Source: Rozella allomycis CSF55 (taxonomy: Eukaryota). From it: 20,000 bases of DNA. The stretch spans positions 109,189-129,188 of the forward strand of contig KE560384.1 of the NCBI GenBank assembly GCA_000442015.1, given 5' to 3'. This document shows, piece by piece, positions 269 through 19,979 of the stretch. Within the stretch, counting starts at the first letter, position 1. Every line of letters starts with the position of its first letter. Under the pieces are notes generated by a model. That model did no database searches and was not told the origin of the DNA. It saw nothing but the letters and a program-made list of their open reading frames with translations. Position numbers and translations under genes: made by a program.

Positions 269-694
269 ATGGCAAAGATTAACCTTGGTCATTTATTTCA
301 TTTTTTGAATTTTGTTGTTAGTATACTAACAGCGTATTGCGGAGTAATGTTTGTCCTGAATTTCACTTTTCGTGATGTAATACTTGGAGTGTATGCTGTG
401 TAAATTGTATGTTTCTCTACCATTTAGAATATTTGGTGCCCTTCTTTTTGTGTCAGACTTGAAAGGAATATCTGCTATAAAGTCACAGTTGGCCTTTTTA
501 AGCAATATGCTCGGGAGAGGTTTGACTTATCTATTGTAATGTTGTTGATAATTTTATATAGCCTGGGATGCTTTGTACTTGGAAGCCAAGGATACTCGCT
601 GATAGTTGGAGCTGTCATACTAGCGATTGCATTCCTTACAATTATATGCTCCTTTATTGCTGGATTTGATGCATATCCAGAGCCAATAATCTAA
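269..694 (+). CDS. TVP15: TVP15/COPI-associated Golgi membrane protein; join(269..399,428..535,562..694), 123 aa
   Basis: Two GT-AG introns (28 and 26 nt) give a small multi-TM protein containing FLSNMLGRGLTYLFLG, the family F..GRG.Y.F.G motif. Confidence 0.75.
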
Positions 695-5068: not shown

Positions 5069-5821
5069 TTAATCTTTCATTTTATTTTTGTTCATTTTGT
5101 CCATCCATTCATTATACAGAATTGCAAGTTCAGGTGAACCCCCAATTGCTTCCTTTGTCAATTGCAACTCTTCTAATCTTCTATTTATATCTTCAAAATC
5201 TTTCGTTATCTTCTTATGAAATGGTGACTCAATTTCAGTTGTTTCTACAGCCTTTGATTCCACCAGTATCCTCTGACTGTTCTTCAAACAGTGAATAGCC
5301 TCATTGTACAATTGGACTTGCTGAAGAAGACTCCCGATATATTTCCATCCTTGATAACATGTTCTTCTTTCATCTAAATAGCCAGTTATATACATCAATG
5401 CATCTTATGATTAAACTCAATCTATATTTACTCTTGTAATCTTTAATCTTATGAAACGCTTGGAAAAGAAGTAACAAACTACCTGCATCTCTCGTCTTTA
5501 GTGAAATCTATAATCAAACTCAATACACATTACAAGCTCATTCGCAACCAACTTTATATTCTCACACTCTTCAAGTTTCATAAAACACCTCAATCTTAAA
5601 TCCACAATTTCCTTCTTCCCTTTTATATTCTCGCATTCCAAAAGGCATTTCCTATACTCTCCTCTATAATAATACTCATCTGCCCGGTATTTCGCCATCG
5701 GCAGTGTCTTGCAATACTCTTTATCATCAAAAGACGAATCCTTAAACCACTGCTACACATATTTATATATTCTTACATTTTCTGTACGGTAAAAGAATGA
5801 ATACTCTGAATCTTGTGGCAT
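5069..5821 (-). CDS. TPR-like protein resembling C8orf76; complement(join(5069..5403,5432..5507,5534..5752,5777..5821)), 224 aa
   Basis: Three GTA-AG introns (24 or 27, 26, 28 nt) join the fragments. QWF...KYRADEYYYRGEYRKCL...RC resembles the C8orf76 N-terminus as I recall it; not searched. Confidence 0.65.
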
Positions 5822-7328
5822 GGGCGAAAAACTTTACTTGGTTCGTTTCGTACAACGACATGCTGAATTTCGATTAGCTGAATTTGAAGCTCTGTGCAAA
5901 TTATTTGATATAAAATACAAGGCGCACACGGAATACACTGATCTTGTATAGTTATTTTTTGAAAATGATGTAGAGTCCGTTTTGGATTGTTTCTTTCAGA
6001 TCTGAAGATGATATTAGAAAAATATTGTCGAGGTCTTTTTTGATAAAGTATATAGATATGGTTTGAACTAGTAGATGTGTGTTGGAGCATTATGCGTGCA
6101 GCGAACAATCGTTAGATCATTTGGCAGAATTAGTTAAAGATATACCGCAAGATGTTTTCGTAAGATTATTTGGTTCAATCGAGTCAGGAAGTTTATAGAA
6201 ACGATACATTTAAATTTGTTATAGACACTTTTGCTACCTCAATGTCTGGCAAGGAAAAGATTGACACTATAGAAAAGTTTGCTTATCTGCCATTTGACGG
6301 GGACATTGACTTGAAAAATCCAAAGAATACTTTTCACGTGATAATCGATAACAGACACACAATAGAAAAGGAACCAAGAGCGTTCTATTTTGGAAGATGG
6401 ATTGGAGATGGAAATAGAGAGTTTATCGATATCTATAATGTCAAAAAGAGAAAATACATTGGCACTACAACAATGGACGCTGAGCTGTCGCTGATAATGT
6501 CAAATATGGCACTAGTCAAGAAGGGGTCTCTGGTTTACGATCCATTTGTTGGCACTGGTAATTTATAATAATTGATATTGTGGGCAGCTTTCTAGTTACT
6601 TCATCTTGCTTTGGGTCTTATTCATTCGGTTCAGATATTGATGGGCGGCAGATTAGAGGCAAAGATGGAAGTATGTTTAATGATTCACATTTAATAGAAA
6701 AATCTTTGAAATCTAATATAGCACAGTACAAGCTACAAAATAGAATTCTGGGTACAGTTGTTTGTGATATTACTCAACATCCATTTAGGCCCGATGGTTT
6801 CCGTTTCGATGCAATTATCACTGATCGTAAGTATTATTTTTTCTATTCAAAAGCTCCTTACGGTGTTAGAGCAGGCGCGAAAAAGATTATGATGAAGGAG
6901 GGCGGTTTCTTCAAAAATACTGAAGAGTAAAAATGAAATATTTTCTATTAAATAGCGGTAAAAGTTTTTATCCTGCAACCATTCCTTACGAACTGCCAGA
7001 TGTTATTTACGATTTACTAAATTTTTCTTCAGTATATCTTGAAATTGGTGGCAGGCTGGTGTACTGGTTACCAGTAATTGATGATGAAGAGTAAATTTAT
7101 TGCAATGGGTGTAATAGGGAAAATGATTTAAAAGAGCCTCCTAATCATCCATGTTTTGACATGATCTCAAAATGCCCTCAAATATTCGGCGGCTGGCGAA
7201 GGATTCTTGTTACAATGGAGAAAAAGTGCGATCCTGAATCTATAGACTTTAATATCAAAAAAGATCATTTGGTGGAACCTTTTAGAAATCGGTTTTTCAC
7301 GAAAATGAAATTAAACAGCGAAGCATAA
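5820..7328 (+). CDS. TRM11: tRNA m2G10 methyltransferase catalytic subunit; join(5820..5945,5974..6047,6075..6159,6188..6557,6584..6670,6698..6826,6854..6926,6956..7090,7118..7328), 429 aa
   Basis: N-terminus YLVRFVQRHAEFR, RKYIGTTTMDAELSL, DPFVGTGS, GSDID, spliced DAIITDPPYGVR, and GGRLVYWLP. Eight introns of 26-29 nt, one non-canonical. Confidence 0.93.
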
Positions 7329-12643: not shown

Positions 12644-12702
12644 AATGAAGATTTTCGACTTCAAAAATAAATNAATGAAGATTTTCGACATCAAAAATAA
12701 AT
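12644..12702. other. 29-bp duplication around a single N (assembly artefact)
   Basis: 12644-12672 and 12674-12702 are identical except T12660/A12690. Confidence 0.9.
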
Positions 12703-12705
12703 TTC

Positions 12706-15415
12706 ATGGATTTGTTGAGACTCGATTTTCAAAAGGAAATAGCTATAGATATATCAGATAATGATGCACTTTTTGTATTAGCCAAGGGAATAGGTCACGA
12801 TTCAATAATATCAACGTTGTTAAAAGCGTTTGCGTCACCACAGGTCCTTGTGTTCCTTGTACACGCATCATCTGAACAGGAACAATCATTTATTTCTATT
12901 TTTAAAGCGCAGGGATGGGATTTAAATAATTTCAAATGTGTTAATTCTGACCTTACTTCCAAGGCAAGGTAAAGATCATTAGCCTTAATCAAAGATCTCA
13001 AATGTATGAAAAGGGTGGTGTTTTTAGTATAACATCGAGAATTCTAGTCATGGATTTGTTGAAAGAGCATATTCCCATTGAAAAAACCACAGGGATGTTG
13101 ATATTGAATGCACATACAATTACTGATGAAACATTAGAAGCATTCGCTATGAGGTTATATCGGCAAAAGAATAAGAATGGATTTATTAAAGCGGTTACTG
13201 AAAAAGCGGAAGGATTGACTATTGGATTTGCAAGGTTGGAAAAAACTCTGAAATGTTTGTATTTAACAGATGTAAAGTTTTATCCACGATATGAAGTTCG
13301 AATCGCTCAGCAGTTGGAAGAAAAAGAGACAGAATTGATAGAAATAAATATTGGAATGACTGATAAGATGAAAGACATTCAATTGGCTTTGATAGAAGTT
13401 ATGGATAAATGTATAAAAGAATTAGCCAAGATGCACAAAGAACTAAATATTGAAGAAATGAATGTAGAAAATGGATATTTTAAACATTTTGATGCAATAA
13501 TTAAACGACAACTGGATCCAATATGGCACACAGTTGGTTTGCGTTCCAAACAATTAATGTCAGATTTGGTCGATTTAAGGAATTTAATACAGTAATATTA
13601 AAATAATTTCATTTAAATAGCTATTTGAATAGTACAGACTGCGTAACATTTTACTCGTATTTGGAAACGATTCTAACGAGCCAAAAAATGAATGAAATGG
13701 GAACGAGTTGGGTTTATTTTGATGCTGCAAATGTTGTGTTTGAGCTTGCCAAAGAAAGAATAGTAGAAAAGAGCCAAGGAAAGCTTAAGCTGACTTTAGA
13801 GAAGAATCCTAAATGGGATGTTTTGAATCAAGTTTTAGATGAAATTAAACAAGAAACTGCAAATTTAGATCAACAAAGAATATTGATTTTAACTCAAGAT
13901 TCCAAACATTGTAGACAGCTGAAGAAATTACTTGTTGATGGGCCGAATAAACTTTTGCGTGAAGTGATACAAGAAAATGAGAATCTTAAAAGCCAATTGA
14001 GGCCCATTCTGGATGTTGGGTTGATTAAAGAACCTTTGGAAAAGAAACGGAAGCGAGAACTTCGAATGCCTGAAATGAACAATGTTGATTTGGTGTAAAT
14101 TTACATTTAAATTATTTTTAGTAAATTGCTGGTTGAGGAGCCAATTGATTATGAAAGTTCTGTTCAAACTGAAGACAAGGAGTTTAAAATCATTGATGAG
14201 CCGATTATAAGAATTCAAACATTTTCAGATATAAAGTTTGGCTCAATATTGAATGAATTTATGCCTGATTTTATTATTCTAATGGAACCCCATTTAGAAA
14301 CAATTCGATTCATTGAAGTAAATAGCTGAAATCAAAGTCATTAGACTTTCAATGCTACATTCAAAGAACATTCTTTAAGAATTTATTTATTTTCTTATGA
14401 ATATTCTGCAGAAGAGCAAAAATATCTTACATCAGTTAGACGTGAGAAAGATGCATTTCAACGTTTAATTAGAGAAAAATCTGTACATATTTAACTCTTT
14501 ATATTCATAGGTTATGGCTGTCGGTAAAGAACAAGATGGAAAAGTTCAGCTCATTGATGACGATGACTTGACAAATGTTAACACTAGAATAGCTGGCGGA
14601 AAAGTTGAATTTGAAGCACATAAAGTAAAATTTCATTGTTTGTTAAAAACTTGATAATTATTGATTCGAGAGAATTTCGAAGCTCTCTTCCTTCAATCCT
14701 GCACAAGAAGAACATTGACATTGAGCCGGTCACTATCGAAGTTGGAGATTATATTCTCACACCCAAAATATGTGTAGAAAGAAAATCTATTCCTGATTTA
14801 ATATCATCATTGAATACTGGACGGCTGTATACCCAAGTGGAAGCGATGTGTAGATATTATGATCATCCTATAGTCCTAATTGAATTCGATCACCAAAAAG
14901 CATTTTCTTTACAAGTAGTTTAATTTTTATCTATAATTATTAGTCACAAGAGTTTTATTCCTCTGAAATCAATTCTACTAGCGTATCGTCTAAACTCGCC
15001 TTGCTAATACTTCATTTCCCAAAATTAAGACTGATTTGGTCTTCAGGAGTTTACGAAACTGTTGAAATCTTTATGGATCTCAAAAAAGGTCAAGAACAGC
15101 CAGATTTAAATAAAGTTTTACTCACAGGTGGAGATTCTTCAATAGAAAATGATGAATCGACTAACTTTCTCTTCAAAGTATAAAATCATGAATCAAATTG
15201 ATAGGATATTTTGCTAACTACGCCAGGTGTTACNGGATATTTTGCTAACTATGCCAGGTGTTACCATTTACAATGTTAGGACAATTTTGCAATCAGTCAA
15301 GAATTTGAAAGATTTGTCTAACAAAGATTTGAAGTCTTTAAAAGCCTTAATAGGGGATGGCCCTGGAGAAAAGTTACATTCATTTATACATAAAAACTGG
15401 ACAAACAAGAATTAA
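12706..15415 (+). CDS. RAD1: XPF/Rad1/ERCC4 endonuclease, ~818 aa; exons 12706-12968, 12995-13591, 13621-14094, 14122-14317, 14345-14482, 14511-14624, 14654-14914, 14944-15177, 15205-15415 (minus a 31-nt artefact)
   Basis: [63 protein letters not shown] (ERKxxxD nuclease motif) and C-terminal HhH MPGV...IG. Confidence 0.95.
15204..15264. other. 30-bp duplication around a single N (assembly artefact, false frameshift in XPF)
   Basis: 15204-15233 and 15235-15264 differ only at C15221/T15252. Confidence 0.9.
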
Positions 15416-15486
15416 GTATTAAAGAATAAAAGATTTCTTCATTATTTAAAAGTGTTCCCTTCATATTTGTTTTTCTTAACAACCTC

Positions 15487-16452
15487 ATGATCAATGAAAA
15501 TGTAAACTTTCATATAAACCTAAACAAGGTCAATTATGAGAGACTAAAGACCTGGTCCAAATATTTAAACTTAGAATGGCACCCGTTTCTAGCAAAGAAA
15601 TATTTTGAAATAGTGCAAAATAAAAGGGAATGTGCCTACCATCACAAAATTATCAATGATTCTCATAGAACTCTAAAGACTTGTACCGATTTCAAACAGA
15701 AGGTATCAGATACATCAATTACCCGCGTTTTAAATGCTTCGGTGCATTTATTAGAAGAAGTTAACAAGCATGGTAATAATTTACACAAAGAGACACCTTA
15801 GACGACTATAAATTCACGTACGTCCAGGGAATGAATGTTTTACTTGCGCCTTTCATATTTGAGTTTGGCGAAGCACCATCATTATTCATGTTTTCCAAAT
15901 TCATTCACATTGTATGCCCCACATATGTTCAACCGCAGTTGCAGGGTGTCCATGCATCAATTAAAGTATAAATGTAACTATAATGTACCTAGTTGTTTGA
16001 CGAGATATTTAAAAGATGTGATGAAGAACTGTACAATTATTTAAAGAGTAAAAATATTTCTAGCCAGATCTTGGCTTTTGCTCGTAATTAACTGCTTTTT
16101 ATAAGTACAGCATTAATGACTTTTTCAGCGTGCCTATCTCCTTTTGACGAAGTTATTAAATTATGGGATTACTTTATGACCTATGGGTTCCATTTACATA
16201 TTATTTCATTCGTTTGCAACATTGTAAAACATAGAGAGGAATTATTGGCGACAAAAACGTAAATATATTTTTCAGTCAGTTAATCATAGTCCTAGCAATT
16301 TACTAAGAGCAAATTGGCCAACCGTAGATGCTAGCTTTTTGATAAAGGCAACATCGGCTTGTGCGATGACAATTTCAGGCCAGTTTATGAATTTGCTTAA
16401 ATCTCACATGATCGATATGAAGGTATGTGCAGAAATAAATAACGAATGTTAA
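15487..16452 (+). CDS. BUB2: Bub2/Cdc16 TBC-domain GAP; join(15487..15501,15529..15772,15802..15965,15993..16083,16111..16258,16290..16452), 274 aa
   Basis: KIINDSHRT (Arg finger), RVLNA, YVQGMNVLLAPF (Gln finger), CPTYV..LQGVH and EVIKLWDYFMTYGFHL. The first intron is less certain. Confidence 0.88.
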
Positions 16453-16716: not shown

Positions 16717-17153
16717 CTATGATATTCTTTGATAAATTCTTTGACTCTGTATCCTTTGGTTCCTGTTTTTTCTCCAATTTACGATCACCAATGCAAAAAT
16801 ACCAAACATCAAATTCACAAGATGGAATGTCCAAAAATGTATTTTCTTTGCATCGGGCATTGCGCATTCTTTAAAAGAATCAACTAGCAATGTTTTGTTT
16901 GCGCTCGCAAATATTTCTTCTAACAACTTTTTATCATTCTCATCAACTGGCTTATTATATGGCAAGCATTGAACAGGATATCTGTATTTCGTTGAAATGC
17001 AAGAAGGCTTTCTTAAATCCTGTCGGTTTGGAATGTGATTCTTACCTCATCATTACAGGCACTGCAAGGGCCAGTCTTTTTGCACAAGTAAAAAGTATCC
17101 GCACATTGTGTTGCTATTGTAAAGAGCAATACTATCAATAAAAACAACCGCAT
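16717..17153 (-). CDS. JTB-like small type-I membrane protein; complement(join(16717..17019,17046..17153)), 136 aa
   Basis: Signal peptide MRLFLLIVLLFTIATQC, six-Cys ectodomain, FWTF-led TM helix and basic tail WRKNRNQRIQSQRIYQRIS. One 26-nt intron. Family assigned from remembered JTB architecture. Confidence 0.7.
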
Positions 17154-17168
17154 GCGCCACACCCGTAA

Positions 17169-19979
17169 ATGGCTGAAAACAATATTCCTCGAGAAGAAAA
17201 ACCAAAAGAGTCAAAGAAAAGAAGATTTTATCGGCGCAAGAATAATAATGCAAAGAAAGATGCTGCCAACGATCCGCTGGACGCATCTACCGATACTGTT
17301 GCCTCGGTTGAAACTAAGAGCATGAAAATGACAAGAGAATCTAAATACTCAAAACCTCCTAAATCTATTTACATACCAAAAATCGACATTCAACAGTACG
17401 AAGGATCGGGACTAACTAGTACGATGTGTAAATCGCTTGCCGAACATTCTTATGAATGTCCGATCTGTTATTCGGAATTAAACTCTAAAAAAGATAAGAT
17501 CTTTTCATGCAAGACTTGCTATTCCCTATTCCATATACCGTGCCTTGAAAGCTGGCGACAAAGTTCAGAAGGAGATAGCTGGAGATGTCCCAAATGCAAT
17601 TGTCAATATCCAAAGAACTTAAAGTTGCTATTTTTCTGTTACTGTGGTCGAATTAAGAATCCAAGGCCTAATGATATGCTGTTACCGTTTTCATGTGGTA
17701 AGATGTGTGGGAAAAAGCGAGGAGAGAGATGCAGGCATTTATGCACACTTCAATGTCATCCCGGGTAAGCTAAGTTAAGTTTCGTAATGTAGACCCTGCC
17801 CTCCTTGTACTTCGATGGGCCCCCTTTCGTTTTGTGGATGTGGAAAACAAGCATTTCAGAAACTTTGTGTAGATACAACGACATTTGAAAGTTGCGGACA
17901 AGTTTGTGAGAAAGTGTTGAATTGTGGAATACATAAATGTGCAAGGGTATGTCATTCTGGGGAATGCGAGCCATGTGATATAAAAGTTCAAGTGGAATGT
18001 TACTGCGGAAAAGAAAATTGTTTAAAGAATTGTCAAAAGTTTAAAGAAAAACGTGAAGAGTCTCGTGTTGGATCTTATTCGTGCCATCAGAAATGTGAAA
18101 GGCCCTTGGGATGTGGTGTTCATAAATGCCAATTGATATGTCATTGTGGAGACTGCCAAAGTGAATGTTCATTTTCTCCAAAATTTGTGAAAACATGCCC
18201 ATGTGGGAAGAAAACTGTAGAGTCTATTTTGGGGCATTCCAGAACAGCATGTACAGATCCAATTCCAGTCTGTGAATCGTTGTGTAATAAAACCTTGGAG
18301 TGTGGACATAAATGTCAATCAAATTGTCATTTAGGAGAATGCTCACCATGTGCTGTTACGGTTACCAGAAAGTGCCGATGTGGACGAAGCGAAAAGACTA
18401 CGTTATGTTCAGATTCAATTGAAGAATATTTGTGTGATTTTCCATGCAGACAATTTAAGATTTGTGGACGTCATCATTGTAAACTAAATTGTTGCCCACT
18501 TTCATTCAAAAACAAAAAGGGTCGAAAGGTTATTCAAGAGAATGACGAGGCTTTGGAAATATTTTATCATTCGTGTGAGTTGACTTGTAATAAATTGCTA
18601 CCTTGTGGCAATCATTACTGCAAAGANAATTGCTAACTTGTGGCAATCATTACTGCAAAGAAAAATGTCATAGAGGGCCATGCGGTACTTGTTTAGAAGC
18701 GTCTTTTGTTGAGTATGTTTGTCCATGTGGTGGAACAGTAGTGCATCCGCCACTGCCATGTGGATTTAAACCACCTTCATGTCCTCTTCCATGTCATCGG
18801 TTCTTAAATTGCGGTCACATTCCATCACCTCATCCCTGCCACCCTGACGAAATTCAGTGTCCTCCTTGTAATGTGCTTGTTAATAAGGAATGCTTATGTG
18901 GTCAGAAGAAGGATTGTTTGGTTCCTTGTTATCGCCAACTTAACATTGCATGCACAAATACATGTCCATTCATTTATTCACTGTGTGGTCATAGATGCAC
19001 CAAATTGTGTCATCCAAGAAATGAGCATTACAGATGCGAACAAAAGTGTGATAAACTCCTGCCCTGTGGTCACACGTGTAACATGCAGTGCCATGTTGGC
19101 GAAGCATGTCAAGAAAGTTGTGAAACATTAATAGAGAATCAATGTCCATGTGGAAGAATTAAGACTTTGTTTAAATGCTCTGAATTGGTGCCAATAGAGT
19201 GTGACAGTGAATGCAAAAGATTGATTAGAAATGCAATTCTAGCAAAGGCACTATCAATCAAAGAAAAGGATGCACCTGAATGTGATCAGAAACCCTTCCA
19301 AGATTCATTTATTTCTTACGCTCAAAGAAACATAAATTTCATTCTTGAAATCGAAGAGGCATTTGAACAATTCATACAGTCGAATAGTTTTGAATTCAGA
19401 TTCAAGCCAATGAAGGCGGGCTATAGACAGGCTATCCATGAGTTATCAGAATATTATAATCTATTGTGTTACAGCGTAGATGCAGAGCCAAAGAGAAGTT
19501 GCATCATCGCTAGAAACCCTAAACTAAACCCCTGCATTCCAACATTTAAATTATCAGAAGTTTCAAAAAATCCAGAATTGAATCCCGCCAAAAAAGAAGA
19601 AAGTTTAGATCCTTGTCCTTATAATTCAATAGTGCTGGCAATCTCTTCAATTGATGAAGAGATGATATTGAACACATTAAAAGAGATTGATGATAGTGTG
19701 GAATGGTCCATCAAGTAATAATTTGCTTTAAATGCTAATTAAAGAAATCACGCTAATGTTAATTTTGTTTACGCGGCCAAAACGACACATGATGTTACAA
19801 TGAAAAGAATCAAGAGGAAATTGTCAAAAAGGATCGGCTGCAGATGCTACTTTGCAAATTGTAAGCATTTTATTTTACTTTTAATAGTCATGGAAAATAA
19901 TCTGGTTTTTGATGTTGAACTATTGAAACCGCGCAATGTGGAATTACCGGATCAAATGAGTCAATTGTCAATGCTATAA
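17169..19979 (+). CDS. NFX1: NFX1/FAP1 RING + NF-X1 zinc-finger + R3H protein, ~896 aa; join(17169..17764,17793..19714 minus a 35-nt artefact,19745..19860,19888..19979)
   Basis: YECPIC...SCKTCYSLFHIPC..W...WRCPKC RING, many CGxHxCxxxCHxGxC repeats, R3H FKPMKAGYRQAIHELSEYY. The last two exons are inferred from intron pattern only. Confidence 0.92.
18593..18661. other. 34-bp duplication around a single N (assembly artefact, false frameshift in NFX1)
   Basis: 18593-18626 and 18628-18661 differ only at C18601/A18636. Confidence 0.9.

Follow-up and report, generated by a model that had tools for sequence, protein, structure and literature searches.

In human genes, U2-type introns can carry TG-AG tandem 3' splice sites, in which a TG stands with an AG no more than 28 nucleotides (nt) downstream (Szafranski et al., 2007; PMC2374985). 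Proximal non-AG acceptors of the TG, AT, and GG types are preferred in the germline of C. elegans (Ragle et al., 2015; PMC4484395), and the tunicates Fritillaria and Oikopleura have non-canonical introns genome-wide together with a divergent U2AF (PMC13326754). Putative introns of ~30 nt in Rozella allomycis S23, and the ultrashort introns of Rozella and microsporidia, have been described by Whelan et al. (2019; PMC6349667). Comparisons with these four papers refer to the excerpts of them used here. In this work we analyzed a 20,000-nt stretch of Rozella allomycis CSF55 DNA (contig KE560384.1; hereafter the window, in whose coordinates all positions are given), where the gene for XPF (ERCC4) is predicted to contain a 29-nt intron ending in TG and the gene for TRM11 a 26-nt intron ending in GG.

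The XPF intron, at 14625-14653, resembles the human tandems in its GT donor, TG acceptor, pyrimidine at -3 (T), and purine at +1 (A), and its spacing is also of the tandem kind, with the TG at 14652-53 followed by AGs 17 and 19 nt on; these AGs (14669-14672) may be the AG partner of a TG-AG tandem. The human TG is always an alternative to an AG that is used and is in frame or tolerated (PMC2374985), whereas the Rozella TG would be the only productive site, in an intron of 29 nt that lacks a polypyrimidine tract and in which use of the TG is a prediction. With C. elegans the locus shares short introns and TG or GG ends located a few to 18 nt upstream of an AG (the TG in XPF; the GG in TRM11, at 4 nt), but the worm has three cases genome-wide, all tissue-specific alternatives (PMC4484395), while the Rozella candidates are two in about 50 introns of a 20-kb window and lie in the catalytic cores of conserved enzymes. 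As in tunicates, the spliceosome would tolerate departures from GT/AG at many introns; in tunicates, however, most introns depart, at both ends (PMC13326754), and in the Rozella window 48 of 50 are strictly GTA..AG. The lengths of the window introns (24-32 nt) agree with Whelan et al. (2019), whose excerpts leave non-AG ends unmentioned. No non-AG intron of Rozella was reported in the literature searched, with supplementary files and the original genome paper outside that search, and Frey and Pucker (2020) mention neither Rozella nor GT-TG or GT-GG introns. The original prediction, made from the letters of the window, had raised a possibly undescribed, relaxed 3' splice-site system: homology backs two non-AG junctions, but TG, AT, and GG acceptors near an AG were already on record (PMC2374985; PMC4484395, in the excerpts used). 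If the sites are used, the novelty would be a fungal lineage in which a few percent of the ~27-nt introns have a non-AG acceptor as their sole or productive site.

Two deposited XPF proteins of Rozella allomycis CSF55, RKP19690.1 (P0004) and EPZ37000.1 (P0123), are 100% identical to the exon 3' of the candidate intron, and by exact mapping the exons of EPZ37000.1 match 12706-16449 letter for letter. From this identity and the exon-by-exon match we assign the window to the nuclear DNA of R. allomycis, a cryptomycotan parasite. Its G+C content is about 32-36%, and the draft assembly has one N run and three single-N joins within it.

The XPF junction at 14625-14653

The features of the XPF gene on which the argument turns are as follows.

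12706 to 15415, + strand: XPF/ERCC4 gene, modeled with 8 introns, 819 amino acids (aa), no internal stop, and TAA at 15413-15415
14511 to 14624, + strand: exon upstream of the candidate intron, carrying the NTRIAGG motif (from the exon mapping of EPZ37000.1)
14625 to 14653, + strand: proposed 29-nt intron, GTAAAA...CTTG (GT..TG), phase 0 (from the frames, local introns, conserved position, and profile score)
14625 to 14650, + strand: 26-nt alternative ending AAC (GT..AC), which would put one extra Leu ahead of IIID
14642 to 14670, + strand: alternative canonical intron GTT..GAG, 29 nt, in frame and stop-free, which would replace IIIDSR by VKFHCL
14625 to 14707, + strand: 83-nt GT-AG intron of both deposited models, with 18 nuclease-domain residues lost
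14654 to 14914, + strand: exon with the start of the ERCC4 nuclease domain, including ERK (from Pfam profile positions 1-91 and the human XPF alignment)
14669 to 14672, + strand: overlapping AGs (14669-70 and 14671-72), 17 and 19 nt 3' of the TG and out of phase

The gene model skips an assembly duplication at 15204-15234. The evidence leans toward 14625-14653 (GTAAAATTTCATTGTTTGTTAAAAACTTG) being an ultrashort U2-type spliceosomal intron of 29 nt that ends TTG, with a productive junction at 14624/14654, and we consider it probable that a non-AG junction, in either the TG or the AC version, is real.

The frame of the upstream exon is open only until 14651 and meets TGA at 14652-54, where translation would also end if the 29-nt segment were retained. 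Downstream, an open frame spans 14624 to 14920, with the domain start read from 14654. The two frames differ, so the length of any intron joining them must be 3n+2. Between 14620 and 14720, AG starts only at 14624, 14669, 14671, 14681, 14706, and 14709. From the donor at 14625, the AGs at 14669 and 14671 would make introns of 46 and 48 nt, neither of them in phase, and the stop-free GT-AG introns (83, 86, and 101 nt) each delete at least 18 residues including the conserved Asp. The original prediction had stated the frame change with its 3n+2 length, the lack of any AG before 14669, and the misphasing of the two AGs there, all of which we also found; it had missed the in-frame, stop-free GTT14642..GAG14670 intron. 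The G+C fraction of the 29-nt segment is 0.21, against 0.37 for the following 54 nt.

Homology places the start of the nuclease domain at this junction. Human XPF residues 683-769 align with residues 10-96 of the 99-residue open frame (E = 1e-35), and since the alignment begins at residue 10 the similarity starts at the proposed junction and not earlier. Pfam PF02732 (ERCC4) matches the exon translation over profile positions 1-91 (E = 7e-25), whereas its match in the deposited protein begins at profile position 10. An alignment of 8 sequences shows no variation at the D, R, E, or F of IIIDSREF, and the D-x-R-E...GDY...ERK motif of ERCC4 is complete only with a non-AG junction. When four full XPF gene models were scored against a profile of 77 full-length homologues, the GT..AC (26 nt) and GT..TG (29 nt) models, which the original prediction had put forward as best fits, reached 834.1 and 832.4 bits, compared with 816.9 for GTT..GAG and 773.5 for the deposited 83-nt model.

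For comparison, a strict parse of both strands of the window, followed by hand checks, gave 48 confident GT-AG introns, of which one or two (e.g., 15502-15528) are less certain. They are 24-32 nt long with a mode of 27 (26 nt in 8/48), their donors begin GTA in every case (GTAAAA hexamer in 2/48, GTT in none), and their acceptors are TAG (31), AAG (11), CAG (5), and GAG (1). The candidate, with 29 nt, GTAAAA, and TTG, is ordinary for this population save at position -2 and is one change away from TAG. It is unlikely, to a degree we consider marked, that splicing here is canonical, by the GTT(14642)..GAG(14670) intron or the 83-nt one, which would leave XPF without its catalytic Asp and Arg, a nuclease-dead or decaying protein. 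Both introns are GT-AG with an open frame, the first has the typical length of 29 nt, and the 83-nt version appears in both public annotations; yet their profile scores fall 15.5 and 58.9 bits below the TG model, a GTT donor occurs in 0/48 and a GAG acceptor in 1/48 local introns, and 83 nt is far beyond the 32 nt of the longest of the 48. In addition, the DNA that would be removed reads IIIDSR in frame and agrees with invariant columns, a match that would not persist in non-coding DNA, and the later start of the Pfam match in the deposited protein tells the same way.

Minor (U12-type) introns have non-AG ends more often, with the donor RTATCCTT and the branch site TCCTTAAC. The donor here is GTAAAATT, not RTATCCTT, and TCCTTAAC is absent from 14625-14653. 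AT-AC and GC-AG pairings near the junction were also rejected: each would remove conserved sequence, and their donors are not U12-like.

Next, we examined the intron position in other XPF genes. A metagenome scan gave 77 XPF-like loci, and 34 were inspected (L001-L033 and L049), all matching from exon residue 1. In 16 of the 34 an AG lies directly 5' of the codon aligned to the first Ile (V/I), in phase 0, and 15 of these 16 have an in-frame stop no more than 20 codons upstream; the 16 include near-duplicates and amount to about ten distinct sequences, and L003 and L014, which have the AG in apparently continuous coding sequence, were left out of the count. In five loci (L008-L011 and L013) the intron is absent, and eleven residues separate NTRIAGG from IIVD or VVVD. 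At the site of the Rozella L (TTG), short open-frame proteins of other organisms read through their acceptor, giving K (AAG) or Q (CAG). These comparisons indicate that the Rozella XPF intron occupies an old, shared position in phase 0. No Rozella-like XPF orthologue was found among the 77 loci (the best has 75% identity over part of the exon), and no near-identical relative of Rozella XPF among 120 listed of 134 protein matches (E<=1e-20; best 73% identical).

The shared position puts the 3' end at 14653/14654 and for this reason favors the 29-nt TG version over a cut of the same intron after 14650 (GT..AC, giving EAHK-L-IIID), which we regard as improbable. The 26-nt version has the top profile score and a common length, but its lead of 1.7 bits is negligible, it stands one codon off the conserved position, and it would lose the terminal G kept in all 48 local introns and in TRM11.

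If the 29-nt TG intron is spliced as proposed, the TTG of Rozella XPF would take the place of the YAG or AAG acceptor of its relatives, and joining 14624 to 14654 in the productive mRNA would keep the catalytic start of the ERCC4 nuclease domain. The intron would be defined by its strong GTAAAA donor together with the narrow Rozella length window of 24-32 nt, and the second catalytic step would accept a site that ends in G, with T at -3 and a base other than A at -2. The AGs 17-19 nt downstream possibly help, as in the human and worm TG-AG tandems, and the same tolerance would explain the GT..GG intron of TRM11. We infer both the cutting of RNA at the TG and its efficiency.

TRM11 and the intron population of the window

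The second candidate, which the original prediction also counted as a non-AG acceptor in a conserved gene, reappeared in our set, where two such cases (XPF and TRM11) stand beside the 48 GT-AG introns.

5820 to 7328, + strand: TRM11 gene, with the second candidate non-AG intron within it
6558 to 6583, + strand: candidate 26-nt GT..GG intron joining DPFVGT to GSFLVT (from profile score and alignment)

The exon ends ...YDPFVGT(G) and is followed by GTAATTTATAATAATTGATATTGTGG and then by GC AGC TTT CTA GTT, encoding (G)SFLV. Beyond the GG end there are a CAG ending at 6587 (4 nt on) and a TAG ending at 6595. An intron of 30 nt running to the CAG at 6585-87 shifts the frame and meets 12 stops, and the deposited TRM11 protein (P0242) uses a 38-nt GT..TAG intron and is without the GSFL of the S-adenosylmethionine (SAM)-binding motif DPFVGTGSFL. 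GSFL is present in 9 of 10 aligned TRM11 homologues, the tenth having ASLL. With a profile built from 64 homologues, the scores are 508.4 bits for the 26-nt GT..GG model and 486.0 for the 38-nt TAG model, a gain of 22.4 bits, and the spliced model of 430 aa has no stop or frameshift in its exons. Relative to TAG, the commonest acceptor, the XPF and TRM11 ends are changed at -2 alone, keeping the T at -3 and the G at -1, and in each gene an AG follows at a short distance. By our estimate, a random stretch would match [IVL][IV][IV]D.R or GSFL by chance with a probability of about 1e-5 each, so these supposedly intronic pieces of XPF and TRM11 were coding until at least very recently.

We tentatively suggest, at somewhat less than an even chance, that Rozella splices a few percent of its ~27-nt introns at T-N-G acceptors (TG, GG) that are the only productive 3' sites of these introns. 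Intron length or branch distance, and not AG recognition, would then determine the site, and gene models forced to GT-AG would clip conserved residues.

Other observations concern the same gene and introns. At 6671-6697 (+ strand) an in-frame 27-nt GTA..TAG intron is left as coding sequence in the deposited TRM11 (...SMFNDSHLIE...); the insert is absent from TRM11 homologues, and the spliced model aligns cleanly. Among the 48 introns, 19 have lengths divisible by three, and 3n introns are not depleted. Many of the 48 contain internal AGs that are unused, which suggests that the 3' site is chosen by distance. The string GTATCCTT, the consensus U12-type donor, occurs at 16749-16756 (+ strand) and 588-595 (- strand); about 0.8 such strings are expected by chance in 40 kb (our estimate), and the two probably mean nothing.

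Haplotypes, assembly, and the base at 14652

The window was compared with contigs from four sequencing runs (X1, X2, X3, and X5), all of them DNA; a search for RNA runs containing 13000-15200 found none. No DNA joint that skips an intron was found in these contigs anywhere in the window. The region of the candidate XPF intron is covered with 0 gaps by contigs of X1 (14135-14865) and X5 (14100-14844), which makes an indel very unlikely and disposes of most of the concern, raised with the original prediction, that a mis-assembled indel created the frame change. That there is no intron, and that a 1-base indel error or a ribosomal or transcriptional frameshift joins the frames inside 14624-14651, is accordingly hard to credit. 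Both frames are open across 14624-14651, and there is an A5 run at 14645-49; but in addition to the gap-free contigs, no X XXY YYZ slippery heptamer was found in frame on reading the sequence, nothing in homologues, which align only from residue 10, corresponds to the read-through peptide, and the segment resembles all other local introns.

X1 contigs and the window disagree at 249 places over the 20 kb, about 1.2% of positions. Of 429 differences between contigs and window, the 40 listed are all at or before 9265. Within 14100-14844 the X5 contig has 24 mismatches to the window in 745 bases, but the two deposited XPF proteins are just one residue apart there, a pattern that looks like diverged haplotypes under purifying selection. 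At the three single-N joins (12644-12673, 15204-15234, and 18593-18627) the assembler overlap is duplicated, and contigs of other runs skip 30, 31, and 35 nt, respectively. The two copies at the 15204-15265 join are one base apart (ACG vs ATG) and look like two alleles. The X1 differences and the duplicated overlaps at the three joins lead us to regard the assembly as a mosaic of two diverged haplotypes. In X1, X2, and X3 a contig matches the window until 14801, inside the XPF nuclease exon, and then continues with at least 255 nt of unrelated sequence; this loose end may reflect structural variation in one haplotype or an artefact of the assembly graph.

An error in the base call or consensus, with A as the true base at 14652 and an ordinary GT..TAG intron, appears very improbable. 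N gaps and three duplicated joins mark the assembly as a draft, but mean contig word depths are in the hundreds (X1-X3), those runs contain 75-80% of the sampled words, and two independent errors would be needed, both at acceptor position -2 (XPF and TRM11).

More weight belongs to a haplotype- or strain-specific lesion, which we nevertheless hold to be unlikely: the assembled copy would carry A>T at -2 (TAG>TTG) and be spliced poorly or not at all, XPF would be supplied by the TAG of the other haplotype, and TRM11 would be a like case (TAG>TGG). The 1.2% difference in X1 and the differing copies at 15204-15265 fit such a two-haplotype mosaic, the XPF and TRM11 ends are each one substitution from the commonest acceptor, and in human genes AG>TG mutations abolish use of the site (PMC2374985, in the excerpts used). 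On the other side, a single one of the four critical splice positions accounts for both hits, the GT and AG ends of the other 48 introns are undamaged, and the exons of XPF (819 aa) and TRM11 (430 aa) have no stops or frameshifts. Had selection been relaxed enough to let through the two splice-site hits, ~14 kb of coding DNA should by our estimate also carry about 5-6 nonsense changes; the observed number was 0. RKP19690.1, from a second assembly and 5 residues off EPZ37000.1, has the same 83-nt model, which is weak evidence that no TAG is present there, given that the model was possibly transferred. We favor tolerance of a non-A base at -2, as the sequences point that way, over a null allele; a leaky, heterozygous lesion is a possibility.

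Several points weigh against productive splicing at the TG of XPF. The junction is deduced here from DNA and homology, and DNA contigs cannot show splicing; the T at 14652 is the assembly consensus; and the genome appears strongly heterozygous, such that the other haplotype could carry TAG. In the human excerpts, a TG acceptor never stands alone as the 3' site, and after AG>TG mutations it was neighboring AGs, not the TG, that became active (PMC2374985). The AGs adjoining the XPF TG are out of frame, a canonical in-frame intron of typical length exists at 14642-14670, and the 26-nt and 29-nt versions are inseparable by protein score.

Deposited gene models and wider meaning

If the non-AG junctions are used, a lineage at the base of the microsporidia, which have reduced spliceosomes, would employ non-AG acceptors constitutively in essential enzymes, and Rozella would offer a natural system for the study of second-step site choice when introns barely exceed the spliceosome footprint. 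The deposited XPF and TRM11 would then be without catalytic or cofactor-binding residues only because the gene predictors insisted on GT-AG. Whichever way the splicing goes, the scoring of "loss of active sites" in the Rozella genome is at risk from models forced to GT-AG. As a separate observation on the deposited models, both XPF proteins are joined to the downstream RabGAP-TBC gene via a 254-nt "intron" (15374-15627, + strand), within which the XPF frame continues to the TAA at 15413-15415.

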